The translations under genes and the position numbers were made by a program. From contig CM022672.1 of NCBI GenBank assembly GCA_012295275.1, positions 682,001-746,000 on the forward strand: a stretch of 64,000 nucleotides of DNA, given 5' to 3'. The notes beneath the pieces were generated by a model. The model was not told the origin of the DNA and did not search any database. It was given only the letters and a program-made list of their open reading frames with translations. Positions 1,919 to 64,000 of this stretch are shown here, piece by piece; position 1 is the first letter of the stretch; every line of letters starts with the position of its first letter. This stretch comes from Chrysomallon squamiferum (Eukaryota > Animalia > Mollusca).

Positions 1919-3679
1919 TGATTATCCCAAGATGCACCACCATCTGTTGTATTTCCAGAATGCAGTGTTTCCTGTGAAAAAAAATGGCACCTGAATAAGA
2001 CTGCTTGTAAATTTAAATATTTATTTATTTCTATATAAATGATAAACATGTATCATATTGACTATAATTAAACTATTTAAGCATTTAAAATTAAACACAC
2101 AGATTGATTTCTCACTGCAGGATACTTAGAAAACAAACATTATTTAATTTTTACAGATTAGCAACATTTCTCCATCGATAGCAAACAATCTTTTACATCA
2201 AAGATTATAGCAGCACATAGCACAATTAGACATTGTCTTATCTTAGACTGACAAGGTGCAAATGATTTGTCCTGTGTTAACATTCCCACAGAATAGCTGA
2301 AACTGTTGAAAACTATACATTCTGTTTCATTACCAACCTGGAGGCCAGTGAAGGATGTTGAGGAACCTGGCACATCACTTGAAAAACTAGTTGAACTGTC
2401 TAAAGCAAAAGTTTGTGAGTTGCTCTGTTCTGAACTAAACATAGGTTTATCTAGACTCTTAACATGCACCTCGGGGTCCAGCACATTAGGGTCATCTAAC
2501 ACCATGTATGGAACATCGTCCTGTTTCTCCTCTTTCACTACAACTGATGATGTCCCACCTTGATCTGCACTACTTGTTATTGTGTCACTGCCTGATACTG
2601 AAGTCCTGGTAAATTTAGAAGGGTAACTGCTACTCATCGAGTCTATATCACTTTGAGTACTAGATGCTATGTCCTTTGCTGCATCATAAAGAGCATCCAA
2701 ACTGGCATCCAGCTTTTCTGAAAACAACAAATGTTTAAAACTAAATCTACTCAATGAATTCTGATATTTGTTTTTTAATAATATAATTCTACAGAGCATA
2801 TCAGTTAGCAAAACATTAACATTACATATTTAGGTAATAATCTCTTTTGTCTCTAATTTTATTACTCATCAAAATAATATGACATTTTTTGTGATGTTTA
2901 TCTTTAAAAATAAATTTTTATGAATGGAAAGAGAAGATAATTAAGAAGAATGAGTGGAGATATTGAATTAGTAAAATAAAGTTGCTGTTACCTTTTTTAC
3001 TTGGTGTAAAATCATCAGAGACAGAGGACATTCTCTTATGAGTAGTTGACATGGACGATGATGACATCACAGTGTGCGACAGCTGAGATGAGCTTTCCAA
3101 AGCTGGCTGCTGACTAGAAAATGATGAATTATGGGATATACGATTTTGATCATCTTCATGCTGTTGAGAAAGAGCTGAATCATCAAACTGACTAACTGGA
3201 CTAGAATCATCAACTAATGAAATTGTTTCGTTTACTCTGCTGTCACTAGCTACTGATGTTGATGTTCTTGTCGGACGTCTGTGATGTGAAAAGTTCTGTC
3301 TGGGACGAATTCGGTTACTGCTGTACACACGACCAGACAGCCTGTCCTCACTGGGTGGGGAGTACTCTGTCTGACATGGACTGGACATTCTGTTACTTGT
3401 GTATCGATTTGTCTGTGGTGCCCGATTCTCAGTTCCGTATGTGTTGGCCTCTTTTCTGTGAGTTTTGAATGCTTTTGTACAGTAACTTTCACTAATCACA
3501 TGACCTGTGCTCTGTATCAGTTCACTCAACACATAACGCTCTTTTTTGAAATTGTCTATCTCCACAGCCAGGTAACCACTGAGCTCCACACCTTGATCAA
3601 ACTCCAGGTATTCCCTACACAACTTCTGCATGGCTTCAACAAATGAAGAAAAAAACTGAACAGAGTATTGCTTCTCCAT
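1919..3679 (-). CDS. Gene A (3'-incomplete): paralogue with the shared N-terminal domain and a Ser-rich linker; coding exons 3679-2992, 2717-2338, 1971-1919
   Basis: ATG at 3679 (MEKQYSVQFFSSFVEAMQKLCREYLEFDQGVELSGYLAVEIDNFKKERYVLSELIQ...ESYCTKAFKT). Donor G|GTAAC after 2992 (phase 1). Acceptor TTTTCAG| before 2717 continues EKLDASL. Donor CAG|GTTGGT after 2338 (phase 0). A 53-bp exon ETLHSGNTTDGGASWDN ends in |GTAAGT. No later exon was recognised in the window. Confidence 0.8.
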
Positions 3680-5850
3680 TTTCCTGTTGAAGTTTTAATT
3701 TAGCAATCTGAAAAGAAACATTCACACATTATCAATGCTAATTTTTAAAATGATTAACCTTAATTTTTATAAACTTTAAGAACAGAAAATTAAAATATGC
3801 ATTTTTAAATGTTTTCATTCATTGTTTCTACTTTAAATAATATATAAATACATACATTTACCTTAATTATGAAAATATGTGTGCACTGCAAAAAATAAAA
3901 TAAAAAAAATAAAAAATAAAAAATTAGAAATAATAAATAAACAAAATATATAAAAACATTATTTTTTTTTTTTTAAATAATATCTATACAATTTAAAGAA
4001 AAGATAAAATATGAAAGAAAAGAATAAAGCCCTAATAAAAAAAAAAGAATGTTAATCATTATTTGAAAGAGATAGTTTGAAAATTCTTAATTATAAATCA
4101 ATACTTTTGAAGTCTGTGTAATTATTCTGTAGAATTTATATTCTTTGTTGCATGGTATCCAGATTTCAACTTTATAGAAAAACATGTATTTATATTTTCA
4201 TAGATTTTTTTTAATTGGATGTAAACTTTTATCATCATCATCCATGGACTAATGATATATTTCATCTCTTTTCTTCAAATATAATAGCTGTTATTTTCTA
4301 CTAGTAAGCTTAAAATGTACACAGCATGTTTGTATCTCAGATTTTAAATATATTTGTGCAAATTATTCTCCATTTCTTTAATAATAATTTGTTTCAGTAA
4401 CAATTCAGAAAATTATTAACAATTGTTGCATAAAACATTATAAATGTACATTTTAAATTAATTTGGAAAGACCAGATTTAAATGTAATATACTGCAAAGA
4501 GCTTTTTCCAAGAAAGGGAGATATTTCAAAAACATTCAATTGATTAACCAAGTGAATTTCTATGAAGTTAATTAGTATCTGAAAATTTGACTATATTTTA
4601 TGTTTGGTGATATTTTTATTTGTTTTGATGTGGAAAAAAATAAGACCTAATAATAAAATTATATGTGAAACATTTTAGGAAGTTTCTATCTGTAATAGGC
4701 AACTCTGCAAGGAATGCAAAACAGATACTTTTATTTATGAAAATCAGATTTCAGTACTTAAACTGCAGTGAAACAAGTCAGAATGTTGTATTCAACACAA
4801 GCTAGAGGCTATATATGTTTGGTTTTGATTGGCTAATGCATTTTGCTTTATCTTATCCTATCCTGCAAGTGAATGTTATTTCTGTTTATCTCCTATGATT
4901 CAAGATTTATCTATTTTATAAACTAAATAAAAATTAAACTGAAATGAGGGGATTTATAATCATATTTGCTTGTGTCATTGTTTTAACTATGTCATATGCC
5001 AAATTTGTTCACAGTAAAACTTTATAAGCCAACCCCACATTATTACATAAAAAAGAGGAAATGTGACACACAAATTTCATTGGATTTAGCTGTAACTGTA
5101 AATTAAATGCTGTCGTTATAATCTTGTTTGTCCATTCCACTGCCATAAAATGATGAATAATTTATGACTAGAAGTAGAAATAAATGTTCTTTTAGAATTA
5201 TGAAAAGGGTAAAAATAACAGTTTTACTTTTAAATTGGTGGGTAAAAAAGTGAACAATGTGTGCTACTTTCGTGAAAAGTGGGCATCCCTGTTCATTGTA
5301 GCCACTCTCTTTTGTGGACTTTATACAAATTTTAAGCACAACTCATTATGATTAACTGTAAGTGTAACGAACAAGTTAACTAAGTTACTTCCCTTTAGTC
5401 TTTTAGATGCAATTCGTAACGAATTCAAAATAAATTTAGTCTCATCAAAGCAAACATCATTTATTTGTTTGTAATAATCAGGAACTGTTTTAATTCATAT
5501 AATTATTTCTTTATCATAGCGTGTGTAAAATTGAACACAGATAGTTGAGATATACTACACATCGTCAGATACATCATACAGACAGTGCACTAATATACTA
5601 GACTGGTACATGCTACAAATTATGTTACTAATATTATTAGGTACCAGTCGTTTTTCTATCATATTTTAACATAAAAGATAATCGCTTGTAATGATAAATT
5701 AGCCGTATTCAGATCAGTTAAAATCACTATTGAATATTTTATACATAATAACATCATACCTACATTAATTAAGATATTTGTTTCCCCACAAAATCTTTAT
5801 TTTTAAGACATCTTCCACGAAGAAGCTTTGTCTTTCCAGGAGACCATTTT

Positions 5851-5860
5851 GTCACGTGAT
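5851..5860. promoter_or_regulatory. GTCACGTG E-box in the putative promoter region of gene A
   Basis: gtcacgtgat lies just upstream of a candidate non-coding first exon (minus-strand donor-like sequence near 5757-5763). The same core occurs at 18550. Confidence 0.35.
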
Positions 5861-6863
5861 ATTTTAATGATATCATTTCCGTTCGATTCTGAATGTAGCG
5901 TGTAACAAATAAAGATATGCAAAATTAATAATAACTATTTATTTTTAATTTAATTTATTTATTTACCAGTCAATACTTATTATTATTTTCGTTTTGTAGA
6001 TTAAACTTAATACCGGTAATAATCAAATGTGCCTGAACAAATTAAATTCTTGAAACTCCATTTGTCTGAGTTTTGTTAACTTGGATCACCAATCAGATAT
6101 ATATCCCAAATTCGAAGACCAATTGGATATATATCCCAAAATATAATCAAAGATTTATAATTACTGGGCATGAGCTGGGTGGCATAGTTAAAACAAAAAT
6201 TAATAAATAAATAATAACTTCTAGGTGATATACAAAAATATATATTAATATGAATTTTAGTGAGTTGGGCCATTCAAAACATCCTGAATTCAGTACTATG
6301 AATAAACCCAAACAAACGTTTTCCACATAACAACAGCTGCTCACTGAATCAGTTAAAACATGGAAAAATGAAATATCTGTGTAAAATTTCTGACAAATCA
6401 AATGCTCTATACCCATTAACCAGAGTCCCAAAACACCCTTGATGTTTGAGCTATGAATTAGCCGTAGTGGCCAAAATATTAGGCCTATGTAGCTAGTATG
6501 ACCTGGAAATGATGAAAAAAAAAAAAAAAAAAAAGTGACCATTTTTTTCTTTCTTTATTCCTTCTTCTTCTTAAGTTCAAAATTAACCGAATTAGAGTAA
6601 CATTGTAGTATTGAAACCTGTAAACACAAAATACAACTACAACTAATTAGCTAAGTAATTTAAAAAAATAAATAATAAGGTTAAAAAAAATGAAAAAGAA
6701 AGAAAAGGAAAGAAAAAAATAAATCTTAACACTCACCTTTCAATTGTGATTTATTAATTTCATTAACATGGAATGCTAACAGTAACAATTTTTGTGGAAT
6801 CCTACAAACTAGTTCTTTCTTTCTTTATCTATTTAATAAATAAGCTTCATGTTTTTGAGTGAG

Positions 6864-6914
<51 letters not shown>

Positions 6915-7754
6915 AACAACTAAAAAACAACAACAAACATAACAACAGCTATTAAAATTCATTAACAAACTACTAACATAGGAAACAAAGTTTTAGATTG
7001 TTCTGACTGGTGTACATGTCCTGAATGATTTGGTTGAATTCTTGCGAATATCCTGAAAGAGTATATAACAGATGTATAAAAATATCGTAGCATAAAGTCA
7101 TTTCTGATAATTTTTGAAATGTTACCTATATTAATTATTGTGTTACAACCTCTCGTCTAAAATTTAGTAAAAATAATATTTGTTATAATTTTATACAAGT
7201 ACAATAAACTATAAATGGTCCCCAAAATTGTAATATTAGCATATATGAAATTATGATTATGCACTAAAGAAAGAAAAAAATCTAAAATATTTAAACTGAA
7301 ATCTGAATAAAATTTTACTAATTGCAGATTTAGTTTAAGTAATTACTTGAAAGACAAAACAAAGGTAGAGACATTATTATGTTAACGTTATGCCCATTCG
7401 TGTTTTCAGGATATTAAAATGACATCAACAATGCCACTTGAGTAAATAAGGTAGATGTAGACATCTGGAGGTAAACAGCTGAGAGAAAGATCAGTGGGAC
7501 AAACTGGAAGTGTAATGGAAAGAAACCACCTGGCAGACAACAGGATAAGACTGGAAAATGTAGAAACATAAATGCTGAGGCTTTTTGCTGAAAAACAACA
7601 CACTGGCTACACAATGTGTATGTGCATTTTGCTCTTATTGTCAGATTATTTCCAATAAAATTGTGTAGCAGATCAGAAAAAACAAAAATGGAAATACAAA
7701 AATTATATGGTTCTTTCAATGCCAGTGGGGAAAAAAAAAACACCTAAAAAAACA

Positions 7755-7925
7755 ATCACTCGGATAATGGAAGTGGAAACCTGTTGCTGCCTATTTCATG
7801 GGTTGCTCTTTCCATTTAGCAACATGGGACCGATGATATGCACCATTGCACGGACAGAGCGTTAGTTATAAATGACTTCCTTCAGTTACATTTTAGTTAC
7901 CCCAGTTGTTGTACTGGCTAGAACA
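7755..7925. mobile_element. Degraded SINE-like interspersed repeat fragment
   Basis: GC-richer island (ggaaacctgttgctgcc...catgggttgctctttccatttagcaac...tatgcacc...gtactggctagaac). From memory it resembles an abundant gastropod SINE-like repeat; this cannot be verified without a repeat-library search. Confidence 0.35.
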
Positions 7926-9625
7926 TACAAAGTAAATAACAAAAATTGTTCAGTTACAATACAAATACCATGAAAATGTGTTTATTTGTTTAATGTCCAT
8001 ATAATTATACAATTGTTTTATATGAATTATGTTAGTCTGATTATGCAGCTAGATGAAAAAATATATAAATCATTCAAACAGTTATGTAAAATTGTAAGTA
8101 TCGGAAATACAAGAAAATACTCTATCCCCCAAAAAACATGTCTTTACAAATAGTGTATAATCAGGACAATAATATAAGCATCTGACATGAATAATAATTT
8201 ACAAATCTTATTTTATTTTTTTTTTTTTTTTTTTTTTTATATCTATAAATGAAATGTTTAAAACATTTTAATAAAAAATTGTGTTGTTATTTACTGAATT
8301 GTTACAAACTGCACATGATGTTCAATAAATAACAAATAAACTTAGGTTTTCTAAATGCATCCATTTCAGTGTGGTAGAAAGTGCCCACACATACATCAGG
8401 ATGCTTTGATGCCATTTATAAAAAGAAATGTTGATGAAGGATTAGAAAATCCCCTTCATGTGTGTACATTATACACTTTCTACTGACATTCCCAAAGATT
8501 ACAAGTATTTAATTAATAAAACATGTAAAATGTATTTTAATTCATTATGCTGATACAATACAATAGATTCTATTTTGATAATGATGAAAATCATTTATTT
8601 TAATAATGGTGATTGTGTAATGAATGCTATACTGGTAATGTAAAAAATATATAAACATGAATGTTAGTATCAACATTTTGTATCAATGTATGAAGTTTAG
8701 GGACATTGCAATGTCCATTTACAAAAATAGTTATATCTGAAGCATATTTTTCTCCCCAGTAAACCTGGAAACTACATAATGTTTAACACTGATTCGTCTT
8801 ATTGTATTGAAATATTTGTTCTACATTAGCAACATTTTCTTTGAATTTTGAGATCTGTAGTTAATTATGTATAACAGTATTTCATATTTAGTTATAATTA
8901 TCCTTTATTATTAGTTTAAAATTTAATGACATCACTACAACTTAGCTTTCTTTAATCAGGTACTAGATACCTAGTAATGTAAAAAATTATAATAGTTTAT
9001 TATAGTTAATGCTGTTTTATTACATTACTGTGATTATTATTATTATTGTTAATATTGATATAATGTCTCTTTTATCTGTAATGAAGTGCTATGCAATTAT
9101 TAAACTGTACAGAGGACCCAACACACAGATTTATGACCAATCCCACTACGACAAAAAACTTGTGATAAATACACTTTAATATAACACTACTGATTCAAAC
9201 TACAAAGCTACATGTTATTAAAGCAAACACAAATAAGCTGAAAACAAGTTTACATATTTCACTAACATTTAAAAAAATATGGGCGAGATGTCATATACAT
9301 GGTTCAAAAAGAAAAATGATAAAAGATATGATCCCCAACCAGTGAAAAAACAATAAAACACCCTTCCAAAAATAAAAATAATTAAAGAAAGTAAAAAACA
9401 TTTACAATAATAAAATAATATTGCTATTGTAAATAATTTTATTTGTATTTAAAGGTAACCCCAATTAATTACTGATACAATTACCCCCCAAATTATTTTT
9501 TAATTGTATTTTTAACAAATCTGTAATTGAACAAAACCAAAAAAAAGTAAAAAAGTAAAATTTCCATTCGTTTTACTTCTAAAATAAAAATTTAATAAAA
9601 ATAACGTGACAAAGGAAATGAAAAA

Positions 9626-9670
<45 letters not shown>

Positions 9671-10030
9671 AACAGTAAATAAGTATTTTTTATGAACTTT
9701 ACAGATTACATATTAAAAAATGTTCACTGGATGTATAATAATAAACTGCTATTACAACTCAACACTAGTACAAAAAAACCCACCCCAAAAACATATCAAG
9801 ACATTTTTACTATTTTTGCTGCAATGATCTTCTAAAACAATTTTTCATCAGTTTTCATCTCACTTTTTTCATATTTTCCAGTTGTACAAAATCATCATTT
9901 TTTTTTTTTTTAAACCATTCCTTTGCAATAATATTTGTGGAATTTTAAATATATTTTTGTTATTTTGATTATATTTTTTAATATAAAACTTTATTTATTT
10001 ATTTATTTTTTCAGATGTTTTCCCAGTTGT

Positions 10031-13000
10031 TCACTGTTTAGTTTGTTGTGATATTTTCTTAGCCGACATAATTTTCTTTGCTGCTATTTTTGAACATCCT
10101 ACTTCTTCCTGTACTTCGCCTGCTACTTTGCGATCAGACTTGAAAGCTGTGTAGAAGAGTGAGTCCAAGAGAGATTTCTGTGATTCGGACAGCTTGTGTC
10201 GGGGGATTCCTTTCTGTGCAAGTTTAACTAGCTCAGCTTTTGACTTGCAGTCAAATATTTTCAACAATTTCTCAAGTTGCTTCTGTGTGCCAATTGGCTG
10301 TTCTTCCTCCACACTATCATCATCATCTTCATCATCTTCACTCATCTTGGCAGCTTCTGCTGACACTGTTGTAGCAGTATCTTCAGTCAGCTCACTTTCA
10401 TCTAATGGCTCAGTTTTAATATAATCCTCACCCTGTTAGTAAAGAAACATTTCCAAATTTGTATAAAAGATGCACTTCACCATCTTTCCAACTTTAATAT
10501 TAATCCTGAAGAATATAAACTGAAGATAAATAAAAACTGTATACATTTATCTGAATTTTCAATTCTTAGAAGAGTAATTTTGCTGTCTAAAGATGAATCT
10601 TAAAAGAAATAATTTTGAATTTGTCTTATTAAATTAAAGAGTAAAAATGAAGTAATGAAAAGAAATAATTATATGAATTTTCTCATTGTAATTTTAGTAT
10701 AACTAGAGATGAAGTAGTGAAACTCACAATGTCAGAACAGAGAGGACACACCCAGGGTTTACTGCCACTGACATGATGAACGAGACAGTTTTCATGATAC
10801 ACTCCATCACAACTACTACACACCACAACTGGTCTGTCAGTGCCAATTGTCTTACACACAGGACACTTTGGTGCATCATTCTGAAATAAGTAAAAATCTG
10901 AAAATTTTCTAAATAAAACTGGTCTCTCCATAATTCATTCTTTTACTCATAGGTACATAGACATAAATCACAAAAAAACAGATAAAAATAAAAGAAAACA
11001 AAATCTACTCATGATATAGCTATTTTTCCAGGGTTCATACACCTTGGGCTGTAAAAATTTCCAAAACTTTCCATAGCCCACAAATCCAAATTTCCAAAAC
11101 CATTTCCAGGCAAACTCAATAACAACAAAGTGGGGATTTTTGGCAGTTATTAGACATGTTTGTCAAAGTTAAAACTTTTACCATAGCTAAACTGCATGGT
11201 ATACATGTAGGATTACTAGTAACAAAACATATATGTAATTTATTTGGCATTTCAAAAATACAGTTTTATTCTTGGAAGGCAGACTGACAGAATATACTAC
11301 AGAAGTACTGCTTCACAAAAAGTTGTCATGTTCCTTTCTTCTTTTTCAATTAATAACCTAAACCTTTAATATGCCCCAAATCCTATTGCTTATGAGTGTT
11401 TTGGTCTGAATTATCAATTGGACTTTTTTTTCATTTTATTATTTTACAATTTACAACCTCAATTTCAAGTGGTTTTATTTTGCTATTACAGTCTTCCTGA
11501 ACTATTAGATTTAGTCAAAACTTTTCATTGGCTAGGCTATAACGGCACCTCATTCATTATATTGACTTAAATGGGGCATTAGGTTCAGGCTAAATATTGA
11601 TGAAACAAAACAAATTTCATACATTTTATTTTCAGCAAGGACATAATTTTCCATAATGTTTCCTAGCCATGGTAACAAAATCTGATTTTTCAAAAACTTT
11701 CAAGGTCCTGGAAAACAGTGTGCCAAATTTACAAAATGCATATGAACCTGTTTTCACATTTGTTTCAATGTTATAATGTGAAAATAAAAACATATTTCAC
11801 AAAATTATTTAAAACAAGTGAGAAAAAAAAAAAATGTTTTTGTATTATTATATCATTTATTCTGGTATTTTTTTACTTTTATTTTTTTGTCATTTTATTT
11901 AGAGGCACAATAATCACAGTTAATCAAAGAACAAATCTTTAGGAATTATTTCGAGCAGTTTATTTATTTATAAATAAATGTACCAGACCTGAGCCAGAAC
12001 AATGCAGTCAGATTTTGATTTCTCTATGTCACTGGGAAACAGCCGCACTCTGGAAATACCTGTACAAACCAATGTATACAAATGATTGACAATAATAATC
12101 ATTATTAAAAAACAAAAAAACTAAAAACTAAAAAATATTTTTAACAAGAAAAAAAAAGAAGAGAAAAAAATAATATATATATATATATATATATTATGTG
12201 AGCATAAGCCATTTTAATTATAAAATGATAATTATAGTAATTAATAATAATAAATGTAATAACACTAAAGTATTCCTTCTTACTTAGTTTTCATAACAGA
12301 CCTAGTAATTTTAGAAGATATGAATAATTTAGAGAGAGAGAGAGAGATCAAATAAAATAAAACACAAATAAATCTGATAAATAAAAAATTAAATTATTTC
12401 AAAATGAACTAACCTGGTCCAGTTTTCTTAGTCATATGTCTGTAAGATAAAACAAATCTGTGTATTTTTAAAAAAAAGATAAAAATGGTAAGAAAATATT
12501 AATGTCATGAATACATAAAATAAATATTTAAAGACATAAACACTGATTAGCATTAACAGTTATTATGTTTCTAGCTTTACATGAAAAATCAAATGAAGCA
12601 ACAACAATGGATTTATTCAAGTAAGCAAGAAAGAACATGTAATGAACATGGTTGGAGTGGAAAACTGACTGACAAAACGGAATTCTTTGGATTCAAAGTT
12701 CACAGATTACCAAATATTATTAACACTGACAAATAACTGTTATCTCAATCTTTGCTAAGTCAGTTAATGATAAACAAATTTAACTATTGCTGCTGAAAGT
12801 TCACACTACAGAGTAATATCAGAGGTTGATGAAGGTATTCCAGTGAAGTTACCATAATTTGACTGTTAATGTGACTAGCACATGACCAAATCATCACCTG
12901 TTGATAATGTGAAATTCAACTGACCAGTCACTGTTTATATAAATGTTTTCCTTAAGGTTTAGCTCTAATAGTTGTAACTAACTCCTAAACACACTTCGTT

Positions 13001-13203
13001 ACAATTTTACAATTACTGTCATTATTATTTTTTTGATAAAAATAAAATAATCAATTTACAAAACTAAATTAGGCTATTAGTAGACATAATGAGAGGTAAA
13101 CTTTTAAAAAGAAATAAAAATAACAATAGTTGTAAGTGTAAACCTATGTCTTAACTACTTGCTGCTGTTATTAAAGTTAATGTGAAACAAACAAAAATAT
13201 AAC

Positions 13204-13252
<49 letters not shown>

Positions 13253-16200
13253 TGATTACTTCAAACATAATATGAAAAGATTTAACTCAAATCAGAACAT
13301 TTAGATTATAAAAATATATAACTGACCTTTTTCTACTCTCCCTGTCTGCAGATAACATCAGTGATTCAACTTTGTTTCTACTGGCAGTCAGACAAGGAAT
13401 TTGTTGTAGAACCTGAAAAATTATTTTAAAATATTAATTAGAGAGAGAGTACTACTGAATTTACTTTTAACCCATTTAATAATATATGATGAAATATACT
13501 TAAACATCTCTTTAAAAAAATAAAAAATAAAAAATCATGTTTCAAATGATTTTATTTTGAATTTATTCTTTCTTAAGTTCTTTTTATTCAATCAAGAAAT
13601 ATTGTTCAATATTGAATGAAGTGAAATACAACATAAAATATACCACAAAGTGACCCCTAAAATATTAAAAGCATTCCAGTGTCAAATACTGATATAAAAA
13701 AATAAAATTAATGTAACAGGTATCAGTGACCATGTATAAAACTGAAATAATTACATAGATCAAAAGACTTGTTTGATTATTAAAATAAATTGTACTTAAA
13801 CCAGCTAACAGAATTAGTAAACAAACTAAATAGATTTTTAATAATAATAATAATAATAATAATAATTAATAATATTAAATATGAACAAAATGGAAAAACA
13901 AAAAAACACCATAATAAACTTACAGCACTGACTGCTTTTTGAAAATTAGGATGTTCTTTGAGTCCACTAAAAGGAAACCGATGTCTGGCACAAAGTGAAA
14001 CTTTCTGAAAAAAAAAGAGGAAAATATATCAGATTAAGTGTGTGTTTTTGTAATGCATATAAAATGTATATTTGTATGGTCCATTACACAGTTTATGTAT
14101 GTGTTCGACAGAGTTTTAAATGTTTGTAACATAACAGACAATCTCAGGAAAGCACAGACTGAAAGAAAAATAAAAAAAACTTTGTTTCTTCCTGAAATCA
14201 TCATTTCTCCAGTTATTGGAACCTATAAATCAATCTGACGTGTTGTGTGCATGTGGCAATCAGTGCTAATACATGACATGTTCTTACCCTTACTATAAAC
14301 TGTCATTTTATTTTATTATGGCAACATTTTTAAAAAAATGTTTTTATTTTACAGATACAGTATTGGTATCTCTCTCCCTCTTACATACACAAAATCATAT
14401 ATACCCCCTGTACATTAGTTCTTAACTTAAAGCCCAATTTTTATTTTTATAATCGATAATAAAAAATATTACAGCTTACTGAGAACTCTGCAAACTCTTC
14501 AGTCCCCCGTGTAAAATACACCTCTGAAAGTAAAACACTTTTATGAAGGGTAAACATATTTTGTATACTTCTGTATATAAAACTAAATTAATAAACCTGT
14601 TATCATCTGTTTTTCTTATCTAAATATATAGAGGACAGACAAAAAAAAATTAAATAAAATAATAAATTAATCAACTTTATCATTGATTTTATTTATATTT
14701 TCTTATTTATCATCAGTCAGTCTAATAGTAATATTTCCCATCCATCGCTGATCCATACTTATATAATGAATGTCTGGTTGATTTTTTAAAATTATAAGTT
14801 AATTCTATGTCTTAAAGACACAGTGGTAATGCACAGGATATGTTCTGACATATGGCATGCATATTTTCACTTAACATTAAAAAATTATCCATCTGTCTGC
14901 ATTAATGTAATTTGTCTTTAGTTACACATCATTCAAATACTGATGTCACAATATATAATAAAGAAGTGCTACATAATTGCTACACTTTATTATTAGAAAA
15001 GGATGGAAACATACAACTCTTTGTTTTAGAAAGTTTTCGTTCACTATCCTAATTCAAGGTGAGTGAAAAGACATTTTCAGAACAGTGAAGCAGACATACT
15101 TTTTAATTTAAATAGTTTACTGGTTTCATTATGAAATGATGCTTTTATTTCTAACAAAGAACACATTTTGTTATAGATCTCTAAATGTATATAAGTTTAC
15201 CATTTTTTAAAATGTTTTTAAAATAAATTATTTTAATATAAAATAAATAAATAAATAAAAATAAAAACATTGATAGATGATTAAATAAAACAGAGAAAAA
15301 CTTTACAGACTAGAGTACAGACTTACGTGTTTTTTGGTTTTCTGAGTCCTTTCCCACTGACTGTCAACAGAAAATGAATAAAGTATTTATTTTTCTAAAT
15401 AAAACATTAAAATAGATCAAAATGAATTTACATTAGAAGCTGTTTAATAACATTTAGCAGAATGGTGTTTCTGAATACTTTTAGTATAGTTGCACAAAAA
15501 TTTTAGTTTTACCTTTTTTAAATTTAGTTATGGAAACAGATATAATTGATGAGAAATATCATCATCTGATTCACGTTCAATAAAAACAGATATATATACC
15601 AGTTTTAAACTACATTGTCTGACTAATCAATATATAAACAAAACATATACAATATATATATATATATATACATACATACACACACACATTTATTTATATT
15701 TTAATAAAAATAAATAATAATACGAACATTTAATAAATTAATGTATATGTAAATTTATAAAAATAACAAAATACATCTGTTTACATTTAAAAATAAAATA
15801 ACACATAAAAAAGAATTAATAGTTAGAATAAATAAATTAATAAATGAATGAAAATGTAGAATGTATACAAATAAACAACATATATTTATAAAAATAAAGA
15901 CTACAAAATAATACTGACACTGTCTAGTTCTGATGTATCAATGTCCCATGAAAAACCTGTAGTTTGTGTAACATATTGATTTTGTTGTTCAACTTCAGCT
16001 GATTTAACACTGGTTTTACCTACAAATAAATATTATATACTTGTCAGGGCTGTTCAAAAGTATTTTCAGAAGGCACTACAGAATACTGATTCCTAGTGAC
16101 ATAAAACAAATAAGCAATACTGAATTGTAATGTGAGCACTGATATAAGAAATAATAAAAAATAAAAAAATAAATAAAAGATGTACACTATTTATCTATTT

Positions 16201-17462
16201 ATGTAAGAAGAAAAAGAATCTGAACTATCTAATGTAATAAATATTAACCTTAATTTGCATAGTATTAGTTTCCTTTTACAGAAAAATTTAAATAATTTTT
16301 TTAACATTAACCATTATTAAACTCAGGATAAAAGTTAATGGTATATATTTCAAGACGACATTGACTTACAAACTTTTTGTTGTGTGACATCAGACGCTGT
16401 GTCACTGACTCGTTTACTTCCTGCTCTGAACGGATTCTCAAAGCGATTTTTAAACAAACCAACTGTCACTCTTCTTGGTTGTGAAGTCTTTGATGTGTCT
16501 GAACTTGTACTTGCTGTCACATCCACTCTCTTAGAGGTGGAGCGGGTGGATATCATGTAGGGTCCTGAACACACAGAATATTCTCCGCTAAGGTTGGTCT
16601 GAGATGCTGCACTTGCAGTTGAAACAGTTGGAAACGGTGATGATGACTTATTCAAAATGTCACCTTCTGGTGAAGTAACTGAAGATGCTGATGTAGAAAC
16701 AGGTGTTTGTGAAGTGGCTGGTTTAACAGAATGATCATTATTTTTAGACATTTGTGTAGTAATATTTGCAGGAGAAGTAGCTTGGTTTAGAGAACTGTCA
16801 TTGTTAATGGATGTTTGAGATAAGATGAAAGTGTTTCTTTCACAGGAAGTCTGAGATGCAGTTGAAGTTGACTTCACAAGAAATTTAGTATCTGGGAATG
16901 TCTGTGATGCTGAACTTGTGGTTGAGACTGGACACACTGTGCTACTGGTCTCTGTCTGTGAAGATGTAGTACTTGCTGATGGTGCTGTCAGAGAGCTAGT
17001 GGCATCTGCTTGGGTCTGAGATTCTGAACTCACTGTAGAAACAACAGTTTGAGAAGAACATGTCGCTGTTATCACTGATGAACTGACAGTCTGTGTTGCG
17101 GTACTGTCAGTCTGAGCCGAAAAAATATTCCCCTCACTGTCTGTCTGTGAAGCACAAGAATCTGTGGAAACCTGTGACGGTGTGAGACAAACTTCCATGT
17201 TAAAACTGTCCTTCCGTGTTTTTCCACAAGGTGTCTTCTTTGATGTCTTAAATGCTTTGGTACAATAACTCTCACTTATGAAATCACCAGCTCTCTGTAA
17301 AAGTTCACTCACAACAAATCTCTCCTTTTTGTAATTGTCAATCTCCAATGCAAGATAACCACTAATGTCAACACAATGGTCAAAATCTAAATGTTCTCGA
17401 CACAACTTCTGAATTGCCTCCAGTAAAGAAGAAAAGAATTCTGCTGAATACTGCTTAGCCAT
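10031..17462 (-). CDS. Gene B: shared N-terminal domain + Ser/Thr-rich region + PHD finger + acidic/basic tail, ~696 aa; coding exons 17462-16370, 16019-15919, 15360-15327, 14523-14480, 14004-13924, 13412-13327, 12439-12414, 12059-11989, 10880-10728, 10432-10031
   Basis: All ten exons have GT/AG boundaries with compatible phases (1,0,1,0,0,2,1,0,0) and give an open 2091-nt frame. Exon 9 encodes C4HC3 CPVC...CSSC...YHENC...WVCPLC (PHD). The N-terminus MAKQYSAEFFSSLLEAIQKLCREHLDFD...ESYCTKAFKT matches genes A and C. Confidence 0.8.
11029..11750. mobile_element. Putative non-autonomous DNA transposon (MITE, CAGGG terminus) in a gene B intron
   Basis: Left end CAGGGTTCATAC and right end TATGAACCTG form an imperfect inverted pair. 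Both ends carry subterminal tttcca/tttcaa motif clusters. No convincing TSD. Confidence 0.4.
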
Positions 17463-17789
17463 GGTGTCTGCAAGAAAATCTAAAAATATTCAAGTAATAA
17501 TAAAAACATTCTATAAACTTTTTGAATGCGTGTGCATTTAAAAGTAATACATAAGAAATGTTATAATTTTAACATTTTACAAATATAATACAAATGTGGA
17601 ACCACATTTCAAAATTGAATAAATTACTTGAAGTGCTAGGGCGACATCTACTTACTCTATTTGTGGTTCTTGACGATGAACAATAAGAACACTATTAGAT
17701 GACAAAATAAAACAAGTATTTTGCATTAAATTAAATCTTTTGTAATTAATAATAATGATCTAAAAATCTGGAAATGTATTCTTTCCTTA

Positions 17790-18760
17790 CCAAAACAATG
17801 CTTTCTTTCTGCTTTTTAATTTTTTTTTAAATAAAAAAAAATAATTAAAGCGTTTTAATTACATAGTTTCGCTTGTTTTCCCCCAGCCTTCAAGATCTGA
17901 ATAAGTTTTATCGAGACTAAAAGTAGACTTGCCACAGTCCAAATTAAATTAACAAATAATGTCATAAATTTAGTGGGGTTTTTCTTTTCTTTCTTTCTTA
18001 CTTTTTTTTCAAAACCAATATTTAGAAGAAAGATTAATAGCTATTTAATTTACTCAAAAACAAAATAATTCAGCGGCGTGCAGAGGGGGGGGCGAAAGGG
18101 GCAACCAATCAGAGAAAAGAACATAATAAATTTGGTTGATTTATATTTAAATCGAATAAAGTGTTTATTTTGTTTTATCTGTGTTTACATATTCAGATAT
18201 CTTCGTGTCTCACAACATTTCTCAGTAGAAGGCCTTATACTAGAGTCTTTGGGGCAAGCAACGAAGGCGCCGGCCACGGGCATCACCAGACCTCTGCACG
18301 CCACTGGTTATATGAGTTTTCTTTCGTTTAAATTATACTATAATATATATTTTACTTTAAAATAAATATTATTTATATACTGGAATATGCAGGATTTAAA
18401 TTAGAATTTCATGATCTAAAAAGAAAAGAAAGAAAGAAAAAAGGAAACAACAAAAAGAAAGGAGAAATAAAACAAATCTTTTCTTAGTTTCATTGTGGAA
18501 ATCAAATAGGAACTTGGTACCTAAAGGGACACAACTCATTTATTATTCAGTCACGTGACATTAGCGCCAACAACAAAACTAAATGACCTATTTAAATGAT
18601 CTATCATAAAATGCATTTTTAACTATCCATATACTGATATTAACTACAGGAATTAACTGTGATAGGTAAGCATTGATGTTTAATTTAATCTTAGATATTT
18701 ATAAAGGCGTTTTCATAAAAGAAAATCAAATGAAAGTAACGGGGGCTTTCAGTTTACCGG
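17790..18760. promoter_or_regulatory. Putative bidirectional promoter of genes B and C
   Basis: Both ATG exons start just after splice acceptors (17467 minus; 21070 plus), so non-coding first exons are required. Donor-like sites point outward (minus GGTAAG near 17790; plus AG|GTAAGC after 18665, CG|GTAAGA near 18759). Perfect palindrome GTCACGTGAC at 18550-18559. Confidence 0.5.
18071..18306. mobile_element. 236-bp MITE (hAT-like termini) between divergent genes B and C
   Basis: cagcggcgtgcagagg (18071-18086) and cctctgcacgccactg (18291-18306) are 15/16 inverted repeats. GC-rich ends, AT-rich middle, no 8-bp TSD retained. Confidence 0.65.
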
Positions 18761-19925
18761 TAAGAGACGCAAAGTGTCGGACAAAGCTAAAAAGCACTTG
18801 ACGAATTCAGAATTGTGATTCTAAACATTCTTACAGTTTTATGTTTCCATTCTTTTTTCTCTTTTTTTGAAATGAAATGAAAATATATGCTAAATTCCAT
18901 TATAAATTACAGATTTAAAAGAAATGTATGGACGAGCTTTATTCTTTTGATTTCGGTAATACTGAAATTATTCTGATTATAATTTATATCAATACTCATA
19001 ATGATAATCATATAGTTATAATCTCAAAAAAAAAGAGAAAAAAAGAGAAGACATTTAGAATGGTACCAAAATGTTTGATTGGTCAGTTATTACATATGAT
19101 ATGTTATGATTTTTTTTTTTTTTAATTTAATCAAAAAATTATTTATTATTATATTTTTAAATTACAAATGTACAAGGAAAAGTATGACCAGTTGTGGGTA
19201 AACTAGCAGTTAAAGTAACTACAGTTAATTTTCTACAGACGAGAACAATGTAACAGAATAAAAAATCATTGAGATAAAAGCTTGAGGTAACATATTGAAA
19301 ATATGCCAAATTGTAGGAAAATGGGCAATTTCTTGTTTACACTATGTACATATATATACAGTAAATATTTAATGCTCTGAAGTTGAATTAAAATAAACAT
19401 CCAATCAAATGTTAGTATTTTGATAGGTGAACTAGCATAAGGTAATAATCTATGCTGCCAAATCATATGATTTTTTTTACCCCCAGAAGGTAAGAAACAG
19501 TTCATACGTGATACATTTTGACATTATAAAGTAACTTTGGTGGTTTTATTCTGGAAAAATTAAAATCAGATGAACAGCAACACTTGGGGAACATTGATCA
19601 TTTTTTATATGATGGTTGTTAATTTTGCTACATTTCAAAGCTGTAAGAAACAGCCTCTGTTCAACAGAATATACATGGAAAAAGGTAAGACACTGCATAT
19701 AAATGTCATGAAGTTTAGTGGCTATCATAACGTGATAAGAAAAATGGCTTACAGATGTTCCTGTATGTAACATTACATGTGTACAAGCAAAAACCATTAT
19801 TGAATTAATTAGTACCCATGTTTAAAGAGAATTTGCAAAAACAGGTGATAAAATATGACAAATCATTTTGCATGCAGCATGGATATTTTTTAGTATAGGA
19901 CTATATTATGTGTTTGTAAACAGTA

Positions 19926-19965
<40 letters not shown>

Positions 19966-21076
19966 AAACAATTAAAATAAGTAAATACAAAAATGCAGAA
20001 ACATCCAAAAGAACAGAAATATTCTGATTATACAATCTTGCATAGGCCACTTTCTTGTTTCAGTGCACAAAAAATAAAGCTGAAAAATAAGCAAAATATA
20101 AAGTAAATAAAAAAAAGAAGAAAATCATATAAAACCGAAAAAACTAACTTTTGCATATCAGACTTCAGAAATTAACCAGTTTTATTCTTCATTATAACCA
20201 CATAAACCAATGTTAATAAAAACCCCACAAAAAACAAACAAAAAATACACAAAAAAAAAACATTCCTTGCAACCCAAACAAGTCTGGTGCTGTAGTGGGC
20301 GGTGCTGATCTATTTTTAGATAAATACATGTCATTTCATTTTTGAGATCAGCTTTGTTTATACAATTAAATAAGTAAAGTGTAATACATTAATCCTGCTG
20401 CTATTAATGATAGAAATATAGCAGAATTCATTCTGATAGTACAGTATGGCTGGTGATAAAAATTAATGTAGATAACATCAACGCCCCCCCTCCAAAAAAA
20501 AAATTCTAGATTTTTAAGAGTGTAAGTAACAAGAAAAAAATATTAAAATGTTGCTATTTTAGTTTCTGAACTCATGTATGTTCAGTTAACATTTATTCCT
20601 GTTTTATATGCAAGCTGATACAAATTGATTTACAGCAATCAAATTTGACGAAGCATCACTTAAATGCTATGTTTACTGCAAATTTATGTATATTCACATG
20701 CACTTTTGTGTTGAATTCATTATAATTTATATTGCTTCATCAAGCATATTTATTTTGCAAATTGTAATTTATATGGAATTAAAAAAACATTAATAAAATG
20801 GTATAACATTTAAAATGTTACGAAAAATGTTTCTGGATGCTTTAACCTTTATAGTGATAATTAAAACTCACATATTACAGAATCAGAAGAGTTTATTAAA
20901 AATTTAAAATATTATTTTTATTAAAGTATATTTTTAAATATGTGAATATGTATTTATCAGTCTTAGCAGCTTCAAACTTTTTATACTAGTGTGTTACATT
21001 CAGAAGTTTCATATGTAGAAAACTTTCAAAAAAATCTTTCTCACAAATATCACTTTTATTTTTCTTCAGCCAAACC

Positions 21077-22469
21077 ATGGACAAACAATTTTCAGTGAGG
21101 TTTTTCACATCTTTGCTGGAGGCAGTTCAGAAGTTATGTAGAGAATATTTAGATTTTGACCAATGTGTTGATGTCAGTGGCTACCTGGCACTAGAGATAG
21201 ACAACTACAGAAAGGAGAGATTTGTTATCAGTGAGTTGCTGCAGAGTACTGGAGATGTGATGAGCGAAAGTTACTGCACCAAGGCATTTAAAACACAACG
21301 CAGATATGCACCAAATAAATCTGATGAGAGTGGTGTTCTTAAAGAAAGAAACCTTGGTTCTAGACTAACAGATGAAGAGAGAACATCAAATCTGAGTGCT
21401 GCTTCATCTAAACAGACGTCTGCAAGAAACAGTTATAGTAAAAATGCTTCATCTCATACAGTTGCACGTGGTGATGAGGCGTACCATTCTGATCAAAGTG
21501 CCATGTCAGGAGACTACTATCAGTGTCCTAGACAGAGTAATTCTGAGTGGAATCCAGTGATAGGCTCTGTTCAGAGTCTCAATTCACCAGGCAGTGTAGG
21601 ACGGACTAGTAGTAATAAACGTAGTTTGCCATCTACTGCAGAATTACCCAATGCAAAGACTCTCAAAATAGGTAAATACATTAGAGGAATATTATTTTTT
21701 ACAAAAATGTTTGTCACCTTGTTGCATTAAAAAATATTTATTCAGAAAGTAATTTGTTATTAACATGTTCTTCTTAAATATTTATTATGTTTTAAAATAG
21801 TATAAAGTCTAATACATCTTATTTTGTGAAATATAAATGGTGGTTTATGCTTATTTGTTACTGTCCATCATATTAGTCATTAGTTAAATGTTATTTCTAT
21901 TCTGCCACAACCACAGACAAGTTTGTAAAATATTCTGTGGCATAGTGCACATATAAGATATTATCCTGCTTCAACACAAGTTTAATTTCTTAATTGATGT
22001 ATTTTCTGTTGTATGATTATAGTTTTTTTGGTGTGTATAATACTATATGCATACATACATACATTATATAAAAAAAAATAGTACTTTGTTGTTGTTAGTA
22101 TTGTGATGTAGTTGATTCATTCTTTCAGAAAATACAAGCACGCAGCACAGTTTTCCTACTCAGTTCTCTGACAAGTCGCATTTATCAGCTGATCAAAGTG
22201 ATGGGGACACTGGTGACACAACAGCGCAGGGCTCATACACAGACACTGTTCATTTACCTAGTACTGTACAGGTGAAAGAGGAGGAGCTTGATGATTGTGT
22301 TTTAATAGACAGTGCCGATGAAGCTGATGTAAGAGATATTCATAATGTGCTTGGTGCAGATGATTCAAACAGCTCAATGTATGACAGCTCAGGCCTGCAG
22401 ATGTCATTTTCGTCACCTGGGGAAGGGCTACCAGGCATGTCTGACCAGTCCAGCTCCAGCCACCAAAAG
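21077..22469 (+). CDS. Gene C constant region: coding exons 21077-21671 and 22129-22469 (312 aa), shared N-terminal domain + Ser-rich linker
   Basis: Acceptor ttcttcag| before 21070, ATG in context accATGg. Donor G|GTAAAT (phase 1). Acceptor tctttcag| before 22129 is in frame with the 22272 ORF. Donor AAG|GTAGGT after 22469 (phase 0). Same phase-1 then phase-0 structure as genes A and B. Confidence 0.88.
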
Positions 22470-25895: not shown

Positions 25896-26431
25896 ATGCC
25901 AATGTCGACAGTAGAGGCAAGCAGACTGTATCAGCAGCAAGTGAAATCTGAACGAGCCTTGTATTCACGATTCAGGATGTACAGTGCTGAAGGGGCAAGA
26001 TTAAAAGGCAAGCAAGAGAAAACACCTGAACAAATTCGGCTGCTGAGAGAAAAAAACAGACTAAGAGTAAAAGCACACAGGTATATATAATCCTGATTAG
26101 TGATGATTAATAACAAGAAAAATAAAATCCTAATTTAACAAAGTGATATCCTGAAAGACTGCATGAGATGTTTTTATATTTGTTGTTGTACTTTGTTCAA
26201 AATAATTAATTCTTCTGATACAATTTCATTGCTGTCACAGACTGTTGACTTGTCTTTTCAAGGAAGATTATTGAAACAAAATGTAAATTTTAAATTTAAT
26301 GTTCAGGTAGAAAAAGGGTCTGAAGCTCATCAAATATGTTTGGTTTTGTTTGTTACAGGGAACGCAAAAAACTGATGGCACAGTTAAAAATGACAGTACT
26401 CCAGTCAAACTTTAGTGACACGCAACAATAA
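25896..26431 (+). CDS. Gene C candidate alternative end V0: two exons (25896-26080, 26359-26431) with a basic/bZIP-like helix
   Basis: AAG|ATG phase-0 acceptor (weak). Donor AG|GTATAT (phase 2) matches acceptor ttacag|G. The joined peptide reads MPMSTVEASRLYQQQVK...IRLLREKNRLRVKAHRERKKLMAQLKMTVLQSNFSDTQQ*. Confidence 0.55.
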
Positions 26432-29313: not shown

Positions 29314-29757
29314 CAAGGTGTAAATGAGTCAATGAAAGCAAACAGACGAGTATGTTTGAAAAACTACACACTGGAAAACCTCCAGTCAGCCATTACTTCA
29401 GTAATGTCGGGTGATATGACCATAAAAGAAGCCTCACGATTTTATAACATTCCTAAAGCCACATTGTATATAAAACTTCCCCGAGCTCACAAAGAACACA
29501 TTTCTGTGCTGACAACTTCAGAGGAACGGGCACTTGTAGATTCAGCTCTTGAGAAATGCAAGGGTGGAGGCATTCTGAGTAAAGGACAGTTTCTGCTGAA
29601 TGTCAAGAAACTGCTGGATGATGCAGAACGAGAAAACGAAAAGAAACCAGGACACACACCAAGACCAAAACGATTCAAAGACAACCTGCCTGATTATAGC
29701 TGGCTGGCTAACTTCTGCAAGAGAAATCCTCAGATTAAGAACTGTTTTCCAAAATAA
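29314..29757 (+). CDS. Gene C alternative last exon V1: Psq-like HTH + CENP-B-like HTH (147 aa)
   Basis: Acceptor ttatttcag| phase 0; NYTLENLQSAITSV...MTIKEASRFYNIPKATLY...LTTSEERALV...WLANFCKRNP; stop TAA. Confidence 0.85.
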   Translation, partial: QGVNESMKANRRVCLKNYTLENLQSAITSVMSGDMTIKEASRFYNIPKATLYIKLPRAHKEHISVLTTSEERALVDSALEKCKGGGILSKGQFLLNVKKLLDDAERENEKKPGHTPRPKRFKDNLPDYSWLANFCKRNPQIKNCFPK

Positions 29758-33325: not shown

Positions 33326-33814
33326 CTGGATTCAGCAAACCGAATGTTAATGAGGAGAGTAGGTAGCAAAGGTTGTTACACGTCAGAAAGTTTGAACGCT
33401 GCAGTTCAGGCTGTCATGGAGAAACGGATGAGTGCCAAAGATGCTTCTGCCCACTACAACATTCCACGAGCAACTATTTATGACAAACTGCCTCGACCCA
33501 CCAAACAGCAGGCAAAGACAGCCATTTTGACATCTGCTGAGGAAGAGGAGCTAGCTAACTTCATAATTGACAGACATGAAAGTGGCAGACCTCTCACAAA
33601 GATAGAGGTGCTGAAGAAAGTGAAAATGTTGTGTTACACCAAGTTTGATGAGTCAGGTGATCAGGGGTCAGTCAGATCAACCATACTGCAGAGGATCACA
33701 GAGAAACCTCCTGACTATTTCTGGTTGTCAAACTTTTGTAAAAGACATCCTAGAGTCAATGGTCTCTTTCAGACCAGCAGTCACCTAATGGAAAAGTATG
33801 CAGCAAATGATTAG
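33326..33814 (+). CDS. Gene C alternative last exon V2: double HTH (162 aa)
   Basis: Acceptor ttcttacag| phase 0; YTSESLNAAVQAV...YNIPRATIYDKLP...LTSAEEEELA...WLSNFCKRHP; stop TAG. Confidence 0.85.
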   Translation: MDSANRMLMRRVGSKGCYTSESLNAAVQAVMEKRMSAKDASAHYNIPRATIYDKLPRPTKQQAKTAILTSAEEEELANFIIDRHESGRPLTKIEVLKKVKMLCYTKFDESGDQGSVRSTILQRITEKPPDYFWLSNFCKRHPRVNGLFQTSSHLMEKYAAND

Positions 33815-34757: not shown

Positions 34758-35153
34758 GATTCTACACGATTGTTCCCCTCCAATCCTCGATCACGATTCC
34801 AGTACTCTGCGTCTGACTTGGCAGCTGCTACACACGAAGTGCTTACCAAGAAGATGACCATAGTGGAAGCAGCTGAAACATTTAACATTCCCTGTCATGC
34901 CCTCTCAGCCAAACTCCCGCTGATACGACCACGGAGAACAAACAATATTTTAACTGAAGAAGAAGATAATGCACTTGTTGAGATCTTGTTAAAGAGGAGT
35001 CAGCTGGGTGATCCCATGACCAGGTCAGAAGCTTTGATTGAGGTGAAGAATATCATTGAGGGAAGCCCAAGAGAAAAAGGTCTCAAAAGAATGCCAGGAT
35101 TTCATTGGCTAAGGAACTTTCTCAGGAGGCATCCAGATGTAACACTTAAATAG
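34758..35153 (+). CDS. Gene C alternative last exon V3: double HTH (131 aa)
   Basis: Acceptor cttttacag| phase 0 (DSTRLFPS...); YSASDLAAATHEV...FNIPCHALSAKLP...LTEEEDNALV...WLRNFLRRHP; stop TAG. Confidence 0.85.
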   Translation, partial: DSTRLFPSNPRSRFQYSASDLAAATHEVLTKKMTIVEAAETFNIPCHALSAKLPLIRPRRTNNILTEEEDNALVEILLKRSQLGDPMTRSEALIEVKNIIEGSPREKGLKRMPGFHWLRNFLRRHPDVTLK

Positions 35154-36755: not shown

Positions 36756-37172
36756 AAGAGATACTGCACTGACCCCTCTCAGTTAAGTGTCTTTAAGAAG
36801 TACTCATCGAAGATGATGGAAAATGCTGTCAGAGCAGTGGTGGAAAACCACTGGACTATCTTCAAAGCGAGTTCTGTGTTCCAGGTCCCAAAGTCGACTC
36901 TAAGACGGAAAGTGCCGATAATGCTAGGAACACCAAAAGGGGAGTCTGTCTTGAGCAGGGAGGAGGAGGAGAGTCTGGCTCACCTGATGAGAAGGCGAGC
37001 AGAGGAGAAAAACCCAATGTCAAGACAGGAATTGTTTAGAGAGGTCAAGAGAATCATTGATGCAAATCCAAGACCAAACCACTTCAAGGAAAACATGCCT
37101 GGTTATGGCTGGTTGATTTTCTTCTTGAAACGCAATCCTGATATAAAAGATTGTCTTAAAACAGATAAATGA
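36756..37172 (+). CDS. Gene C alternative last exon V4: double HTH (138 aa)
   Basis: Acceptor tttgtttcag| phase 0; YSSKMMENAVRAV...FQVPKSTLRRK...LSREEEESLA...WLIFFLKRNP; stop TGA followed immediately by AATAAA. Confidence 0.85.
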   Translation, partial: KRYCTDPSQLSVFKKYSSKMMENAVRAVVENHWTIFKASSVFQVPKSTLRRKVPIMLGTPKGESVLSREEEESLAHLMRRRAEEKNPMSRQELFREVKRIIDANPRPNHFKENMPGYGWLIFFLKRNPDIKDCLKTDK

Positions 37173-37910: not shown

Positions 37911-38339
37911 GATTCCTCTTTGAATTGCAACTGGAGACGCAACTTTAAGCAGTACACTGAGGAAGATATGCAGAATGCTATTAAAGCAGTTCTTGATCAG
38001 AAATGGACAATTCTTAAAGCCAGTCAGGCTTTCAGGGTCCCAGAGACCACGTTGAAGCGCAGACTGCCGTTGATTGGGAAGTGCAATCGTCTGAAGATTC
38101 TGACAAATGAAGAAGAAAACCTGGTTGTTAAACTTATCACAGACAGGGCCAGGGTGGGGTTGCACCTCTCCAGACAGGAACTCTTCAGAGAGGTGAAGAA
38201 AATACTAGATAAGAAACCTACACCAACACACTTCCCAGATAACCTGCCTAGCTATGGATGGCTCATATACTTCTTAAAGCGACACCCAGAGGTGCCCAAG
38301 CACTACTTGAAACCAAAGTGTTCACAGCAGCCAGATTAA
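37911..38339 (+). CDS. Gene C alternative last exon V5: double HTH (142 aa)
   Basis: Acceptor ctctttcag| phase 0, with a second in-frame tacag| before 37896; YTEEDMQNAIKAV...FRVPETTLKRRLP...WLIYFLKRHP; stop TAA. Confidence 0.85.
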   Translation, partial: DSSLNCNWRRNFKQYTEEDMQNAIKAVLDQKWTILKASQAFRVPETTLKRRLPLIGKCNRLKILTNEEENLVVKLITDRARVGLHLSRQELFREVKKILDKKPTPTHFPDNLPSYGWLIYFLKRHPEVPKHYLKPKCSQQPD

Positions 38340-55290: not shown

Positions 55291-63906
<8,616 letters not shown>

Positions 63907-64000
63907 CTGAAAACAGAAAAAGAATAATAATAATAATAAATTAAAAATAAAATAAAACTAATAAAATTAAATTAAATAGAATTACAAAATGAAGGGAGTA

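Follow-up and report, generated by a model that had tools for sequence, protein, structure and literature searches.

Three neighbouring genes of Chrysomallon squamiferum, here called A, B and C, encode a common 73-aa N-terminal domain. The domain is real, has no name and occurs across gastropods at the head of a family of transcription factors with many isoforms, a family whose layout is known but whose parts are different. The genes lie in a stretch of 64,000 nucleotides (assembly GCA_012295275.1, contig CM022672.1, positions 682,001 to 746,000 of the forward strand), which is called the window below and to whose first letter all positions refer. On balance we lean towards the reading that the domain forms the conserved start of the members of a large family of predicted gastropod transcription factors and acts as a self-association module that pairs isoforms and probably also close paralogues such as B and C.

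A conserved N-terminal domain in three paralogous genes

A preliminary description of the window, made from its letters, had proposed that the three proteins start alike. Its consensus fitted 3/3 proteins over 73 residues, with domain identities of 71-79% (A-B 52/73, A-C 54/73 and B-C 58/73) and pairwise alignment scores of 280-315 compared with a maximum of 48-55 among 1000 shuffles. The abrupt loss of similarity that it reported at the entry into Ser/Thr-rich linkers was also observed, and the linkers beyond residue 73 aligned no better than shuffled sequences (100, 35 and 24 of 300 shuffles matched the pairwise score); they contain 26-40% Ser+Thr, look disordered and could not be aligned between genes. 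The first coding intron is in phase 1 and the second in phase 0 in all three genes, as described, and the phase of the first intron was checked against RNA for gene C (4/4 runs). Given that the proportion of nonsynonymous differences in the domain (pN 0.10-0.13) was far below the proportion of synonymous differences (pS 0.76-0.87, synonymous sites saturated) for the A/B/C pairs, this indicated that A, B and C are old paralogues under purifying selection. No fourth copy of the domain was found within the 64-kb window. In the tree the domains of B and C are sister paralogues and form one clade (support 96/100); they are identical at 68/73 positions in the vent snail Gigantopelta aegis and at 58/73 in this species, and the domain of gene B, judged from these comparisons, has drifted in C. 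squamiferum.

Family assignment and predicted fold

No Pfam family matched any of the three domains (0/3), none was found in more than one of the 24 rows of a broader alignment, and a search of Protein Data Bank (PDB) sequences with the domain returned no match, so that neither type of search yielded a confident match to a known family. The preliminary description could not assign the domain to BTB, ZAD, SCAN or KRAB, and the same was found here by profile, cysteine pattern and predicted secondary structure. The BTB/POZ domain comprises about 115-120 aa with a mostly helical core, ZAD (zf-AD) has four zinc-binding cysteines in two pairs, and SCAN is all-helical with five helices. The conserved unit here is 73 aa and was modelled as one helix and three strands, unlike BTB in size and core; BTB Pfam profiles matched 0/3 domains and 0/24 rows (E up to 1 and 10), and on these grounds BTB was rejected. 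The column counts of the 24- and 105-row alignments did not show the N-terminal FxLRWN motif of TTK-type BTB domains (PMC11426971). ZAD was rejected because the two cysteine pairs are absent and only C21 is conserved (101/105 rows, the remaining Cys columns reaching 14-30/105), and SCAN because there was no Pfam match and the model from the deep alignment is mainly beta (the shallow one was helical). KRAB, described as two amphipathic helices with DV and MLE residues in tetrapods (PMC5509000, in the part covered), was rejected for lack of a Pfam match and because of the gastropod range of the present domain. Fold searches gave nothing significant, which speaks neither for a new nor for a known fold, and BTB structures were not among the fold-search matches listed, which does not by itself exclude a BTB-like structure. 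We consider it very unlikely that the domain belongs, as a distant relative, to a family which already has a name and another function.

With the 105-row alignment AlphaFold2 gave a model with pLDDT 87 and pTM 0.72 (five models 80-87), with a helix at residues 3-24 and strands at 30-41, 45-56 and 61-72, so the predicted fold is one helix on a long three-stranded sheet. Residues G35, D42 and E53 are invariant in the 105 rows and F9, C21, F27, S63 and S65 nearly so. Column 36 is Y/H in 93/105 rows and column 50 V/I in 94/105, and both follow an alternation that is shifted against the main hydrophobic face; judged from the register rather than from coordinates, they would form a possible second non-polar patch. 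An Atlas structure search returned four clusters from Mollusca (TM 0.77-0.80 over ~70 residues), two of them rich in C2H2 fingers.

Alternative tails behind the head of genes C and A

The RNA evidence consists of contigs from four runs (X1-X4) of one study and covers gene C. Exon 1 was spliced to exon 2 in 4/4 runs, and from the end of the last common exon at 22469 the contigs continued into cassette 5 at 37911 in run X1 (14 loose letters), into cassette 3 at 34758 in run X3 (178 letters, with the mapping seen for the first 30) and, in run X4, into a basic exon at 25896 (the shorter side of the joint being 23 letters). The common exon of gene C is thus joined to three different tails by alternative splicing (3/4 runs). 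This agrees with the earlier suggestion that C ends in alternative DNA-binding cassettes, DNA binding itself being predicted from the sequence of the tails. In total gene C has 12 intact helix-turn-helix (HTH) cassettes (29314-53701), one broken cassette and one basic tail, and all 13 cassettes are on the + strand, the same as the head. The intact cassettes encode a Psq HTH followed by a second HTH (HTH_psq above the cut-off in 11/12, Tc5 HTH in 4/12). The orthologue in G. aegis, LOC121383439, gave 11 isoforms with 322 aa in common, and 11/11 of their tails group with a cassette of C in the window. The basic tail (25896-26431) had no Pfam match, and none of these 11 isoforms carries it; we take it to resemble a bZIP basic region without the zipper.

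Gene A might be regarded as a gene without tails, since no C2H2 tail was found for it in positions 1-1918 of the window. This was rejected, because its orthologue in G. aegis, LOC121383300, has alternative C2H2 tails behind the same three common exons (385 common residues); gene A is therefore also a cassette gene and its tails probably lie off the left edge of the window. The last common exon of gene A ends in phase 2 and that of gene C in phase 0, which may be genuine or may stem from a single-base difference in the assembly.

The wider family in gastropods

The closest named proteins to A, B and C are from G. aegis. A search with the alignment of the three domains matched 140 proteins, and among the 120 matches listed, on which the analysis was done, there were 41 heads, 19 of them from G. 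aegis; one more G. aegis head was found besides these. Counted in this way from protein sequences, at least 20 genes carry this head in G. aegis, apparently on one chromosome, and the earlier view of a three-gene cluster as the whole system was too narrow. Among those listed, 14 G. aegis heads have 2-19 isoforms with a common part of 284-385 aa.

A profile of 24 domains was searched against 1.84 billion representatives and gave 250 matches at E 0.001 and 55 at 1e-10, of which the best 150 of the 250 were examined. The domain was found in 118 of the 119 new relatives listed, always as a single copy and within the first 30 residues in 113/118, and 11 groups of these proteins share a head. When 20 clusters were sampled, 14 were named and 13 of these were from gastropods (Gigantopelta, Haliotis, Pomacea, Batillaria, Nucella, Littorina with an isoform X30, Lottia, Patella, Lymnaea and Plakobranchus); the one remaining, from a midge, was a partial match and was dropped. 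The wider family is ~25-35% identical to the A/B/C subfamily domain, and some paralogues within the subfamily have identical or nearly identical domains. Tails in the 33 proteins scanned were of the C2H2, HTH_psq (Psq/CENP-B-type HTH), BEN and DUF3504 types, mixed within single loci, and many are short, with just two to three fingers or a single HTH pair. Automatically assigned database names of relatives are misleading, for example 'zinc finger and BTB domain-containing', 'KRAB and SCAN' or 'serine-rich repeat protein'. Three relatives, P0156, P0171 and P0181, are 1621-1766 aa long with the domain ~100 residues from the start, and in UniRef the one from Lottia, P0156, bears the label 'Vertnin'.

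In 14/14 multi-isoform heads the common part contains a [VIL]KxE motif, in most cases with a hydrophobic-acidic stretch behind it, compared with 0.9 expected by shuffling, although these are paralogues and not independent. It occurs somewhere behind the domain in 79/93 long relatives, a count made without a shuffling control. The motif may be a SUMO site and the adjoining stretch a SUMO-binding motif.

Gene B and its PHD finger

The model of gene B has 10 exons and 696 aa and was built from the genomic sequence; tblastn with the G. aegis orthologue P0013 backs three of its exons 2-8. The PHD finger has a C4HC3 zinc-ligand pattern and scores above the Pfam cut-off. The statement that B ends in this finger needs correction, as a last exon of 133 aa lies beyond the PHD exon. 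That exon had no Pfam match. The stretches 13327-14523 and 10031-10432 (- strand) have 53-77% and 60% identity to P0013, respectively, and neither has a match in Pfam; each might be a domain that is not yet recognised.

It had further been suggested that B is a PHD chromatin reader which pairs specifically with C isoforms, the two genes forming one combinatorial unit, a reading which overlaps the one that we favour. The clade of B and C domains and their near-identity in G. aegis are compatible with it, as are the head-to-head arrangement of the two genes (starts about 1.2 kb apart or less) and the finding of orthologues of A, B and C, apparently on one contig, in a third genome. However, the G. 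aegis model of gene B has a truncated PHD and the PHD family was found in 0/105 alignment members, so from sequence the finger is an exception among relatives of this head. It also lacks the aromatic and Met positions that we take to be those of H3K4me3 readers, and the B domain has drifted from that of C in this species. We therefore regard a dedicated B-C unit as rather improbable.

Role of the head

In the mechanism that we favour, many members of the family splice one head to alternative last exons of predicted DNA-binding types, and association of the heads would allow two or more short DNA-binding tails to act together. Oligomerisation might occur through the edges of the sheet or its helix-free face, and the [VIL]KxE motif, together with the hydrophobic-acidic stretch, might serve regulation linked to SUMO. 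B lacks a recognised DNA-binding tail and could be a partner subunit or a competitor rather than a sequence-specific factor. Self-association is suggested by the position of the head, its near-invariant surface, the open sheet with the possible second patch and the way in which ZAD, SCAN and TTK-BTB domains behave. In 24 close paralogues 27/73 columns, many of them charged, are invariant, which would be expected if all of them keep one compatible surface.

Several observations weigh against this interpretation. The case for the role is one of position and analogy, and a surface conserved across paralogues would fit a shared cofactor equally well, as for KRAB. The first structure model, from 7 rows, was all-helical (pLDDT 70), and residues 46-56 have a hydrophobic moment that is helix-like rather than strand-like (1.21 vs 0.26; 24 rows); the deep model was preferred because its five runs score alike and because residues 29-42 alternate clearly. 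The RNA comes from one study and from gene C, two of the three tail joins rest on 14 and 23 letters, and run X2 continues from 22469 into the intron. The SUMO and SUMO-binding readings of the motifs are putative. Finally, ZAD is described as forming only homodimers and only some SCAN domains as heterodimerising (PMC5509000, in the part covered), and given that these domains are mostly homodimeric, pairing of B with C does not follow from a shared domain.

Two other explanations were considered. The domain could, as a monomer, dock a single co-repressor or co-activator common to the family, as KRAB docks KAP1, with the isoforms doing no more than retarget that cofactor. The near-invariant charged surface across paralogues, the [VIL]KxE motif beside the domain and the clustered, lineage-specific expansion on C2H2 proteins, as reported for KRAB in the part of PMC5509000 covered, would agree with this. 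However, the predicted open three-stranded sheet and helix would suggest one half of a bigger assembly rather than a short docking helix, and short tails would gain specificity from pairing. We hold docking, the main rival, to be unlikely, if worth keeping in mind. Alternatively, the domain could associate as homodimers only, so that isoforms of one gene mix and paralogues do not. ZAD and SCAN offer precedents in the same source, and the low identity of the wider family to the subfamily points the same way, but identical or near-identical domains in some paralogues leave little room for discrimination, and strict homodimerisation seems doubtful to us.

Features of the window

The coordinates of genes A, B and C are collected in the table. 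Between the B and C starts a GC-richer element of ~240 nt with short inverted ends (18070-18310) was noted by eye; it was not among the 25 longest repeats listed for the window and may be a small non-autonomous transposon within the promoter region that B and C share. Inserted between cassettes 1 and 2 (30458-33060) is a degenerate DNA transposon; its terminal inverted repeats measure 24 nt, the inverted arms next to them are longer and sub-terminal, and its short open reading frame (ORF) remnants (30917-31723) had no Pfam match above the cut-off. About 2.7 kb of short-unit tandem repeat separates cassettes 9 and 10 (46960-49660) and contains spurious ORFs on the - strand. Mind bomb-like exons on the - strand (55891-63940; ZZ finger, MIB_HERC2, two halves of the Mind bomb SH3 repeat and ankyrin repeats) converge on the end of the C array.

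Table. Exons, domains and cassettes of genes A, B and C in the window.
Feature	Position	Strand	Basis
Gene A exon 3, last common exon	1919..1971	-	model and P0016; donor reads phase 2
Gene A exon 2, acidic, [VIL]KxE motif, phase-0 donor	2338..2717	-	model and P0016
Gene A coding exon 1 (domain and Ser/Thr linker), phase-1 donor	2992..3679	-	matches P0016 residues 1-227
Gene A 73-aa domain	3461..3679	-	translation; orthologue P0016 72/73 identical
Gene B last exon, 133 aa: IKxE motif, acidic tract, conserved basic helical-looking stretch	10031..10432	-	P0013 60% identity/130 aa
Gene B PHD-finger exon (C4HC3), exon nine, penultimate	10728..10880	-	Pfam PHD 29.1 bits, cut-off 24; PDB PHD matches
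Gene B exons 2-8	15919-16019, 15327-15360, 14480-14523, 13924-14004, 13327-13412, 12414-12439, 11989-12059	-	open model, AG/GT ends
Gene B coding exon 1 (domain and long Ser/Thr linker), phase-1 donor	16370..17462	-	model
Gene B 73-aa domain	17244..17462	-	translation; orthologue P0013 63/73 identical
Gene C untranslated first exon, 3' end	18634..18665	+	loose 5' ends in 4/4 RNA runs map only here
Gene C coding exon 1, phase-1 donor	21070..21671	+	RNA joint, 4/4 runs
Gene C 73-aa domain	21077..21295	+	translation; P0001 70/73 identical; AlphaFold2 model
Gene C last common exon, acidic, VKxE then hydrophobic-acidic stretch, phase-0 donor	22129..22469	+	RNA and model
Gene C basic Arg/Lys-rich tail, exons 25896-26080 and 26359-26431	25896..26431	+	X4 RNA joint; second junction deduced
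Cassette 1, Psq HTH and second HTH	29314..29757	+	pairs with P0004
Cassette 2	33326..33814	+	pairs with P0001
Cassette 3	34758..35153	+	RNA-joined, run X3; pairs with P0007
Cassette 4	36756..37172	+	pairs with P0009
Cassette 5	37911..38339	+	RNA-joined, run X1; pairs with P0002
Broken cassette	39473..39803	+	in pieces; open in Psq part only
Cassette 6	40572..40994	+	pairs with P0003
Cassette 7	41795..42220	+	pairs with P0006
Cassette 8	43455..43862	+	pairs with P0010
Cassette 9	45022..45438	+	groups with cassette 11 and P0011
Cassette 10	50399..50791	+	pairs with P0005
Cassette 11	51476..51886	+	pairs with P0011
Cassette 12	53279..53701	+	pairs with P0008

Comparison with known systems and significance

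In the literature covered, with subscription journals and supplements outside that coverage, no description of this head domain was found. The layout of gene C, a conserved head in common 5' exons and alternative last exons with DNA-binding types, is that of lola and mod(mdg4) of Drosophila, in which common 5' exons are joined to alternative 3' exons, 20 in lola and at least 31 in mod(mdg4) (PMC6237743, in the part covered). The fly head is a BTB domain, whereas the snail head is a 73-aa helix-plus-sheet domain without a BTB profile match or FxLRWN, and in the snail the arrangement recurs at 14 or more loci within a single cluster, as opposed to a few fly genes. Trans-splicing occurs at lola/mod(mdg4)-type loci and some of their variable exons are on the opposite strand, whereas all cassettes found in gene C are on the strand of the head. 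TTK-BTB domains form homo- and heteromultimers, and the TTK motif is reported as not found in Mollusca in the part of PMC11426971 covered.

The family also resembles the ZAD-, SCAN- and KRAB-C2H2 proteins, with a small lineage-restricted N-terminal domain, a linker, C-terminal zinc fingers and clustered expansion, and head domains on C2H2 proteins (ZAD, SCAN and TTK-BTB) are described as multimerisers in the parts of PMC5509000 and PMC11426971 covered. The snail head differs from ZAD, SCAN and KRAB in that it has no cysteine pairs, is predicted to be mainly beta and not helical, and has a gastropod range, and the snail tails differ in being short, of several unrelated types and chosen as alternative last exons. 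The cassettes of gene C, as Psq and Tc5-type HTH pairs, are like the DNA-binding arrangement of pogo/Tigger. Lineage-specific expansions of Psq/CENPB factors are reported from Aplysia, Biomphalaria and Octopus (PMC10027918, in the part covered); in gene C such sequences serve as the alternative last exons that follow the common head of a single gene, whereas in that source the word 'isoform' is absent from the main text and the head goes unmentioned in the relevant passages. The finger of B is like the PHD fingers of KMT2C/D, WSTF and PHF21A in its C4HC3 pattern and in its Pfam and PDB sequence matches, and differs in being a single finger behind this head and incomplete in the G. aegis model.

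We know of no recognised counterpart in molluscs of the KRAB, SCAN, ZAD and TTK-BTB heads behind the transcription-factor expansions of vertebrates and insects, and the present domain is a concrete mollusc candidate for such a head. Defining it would allow annotation of the whole family, and a 73-aa domain should be easy to express, assay and solve. The one-head, many-tails layout would here have arisen again with different parts. More tentatively, and with rather less confidence than in self-association as such, we propose that gastropods, and perhaps other spiralians, evolved a transcription-factor multimerisation domain of their own, with no relation to BTB, ZAD, SCAN or KRAB, which heads a clustered family of at least 20 genes with up to 20-30 tails each, partly derived from transposons, and giving heteromeric regulators. 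If this is true, cross-compatible heads would let hundreds of isoforms, together with tail-less partners like B, form a very large set of regulators, and the family would have reinvented the fly lola/mod(mdg4) system independently and on a larger scale.

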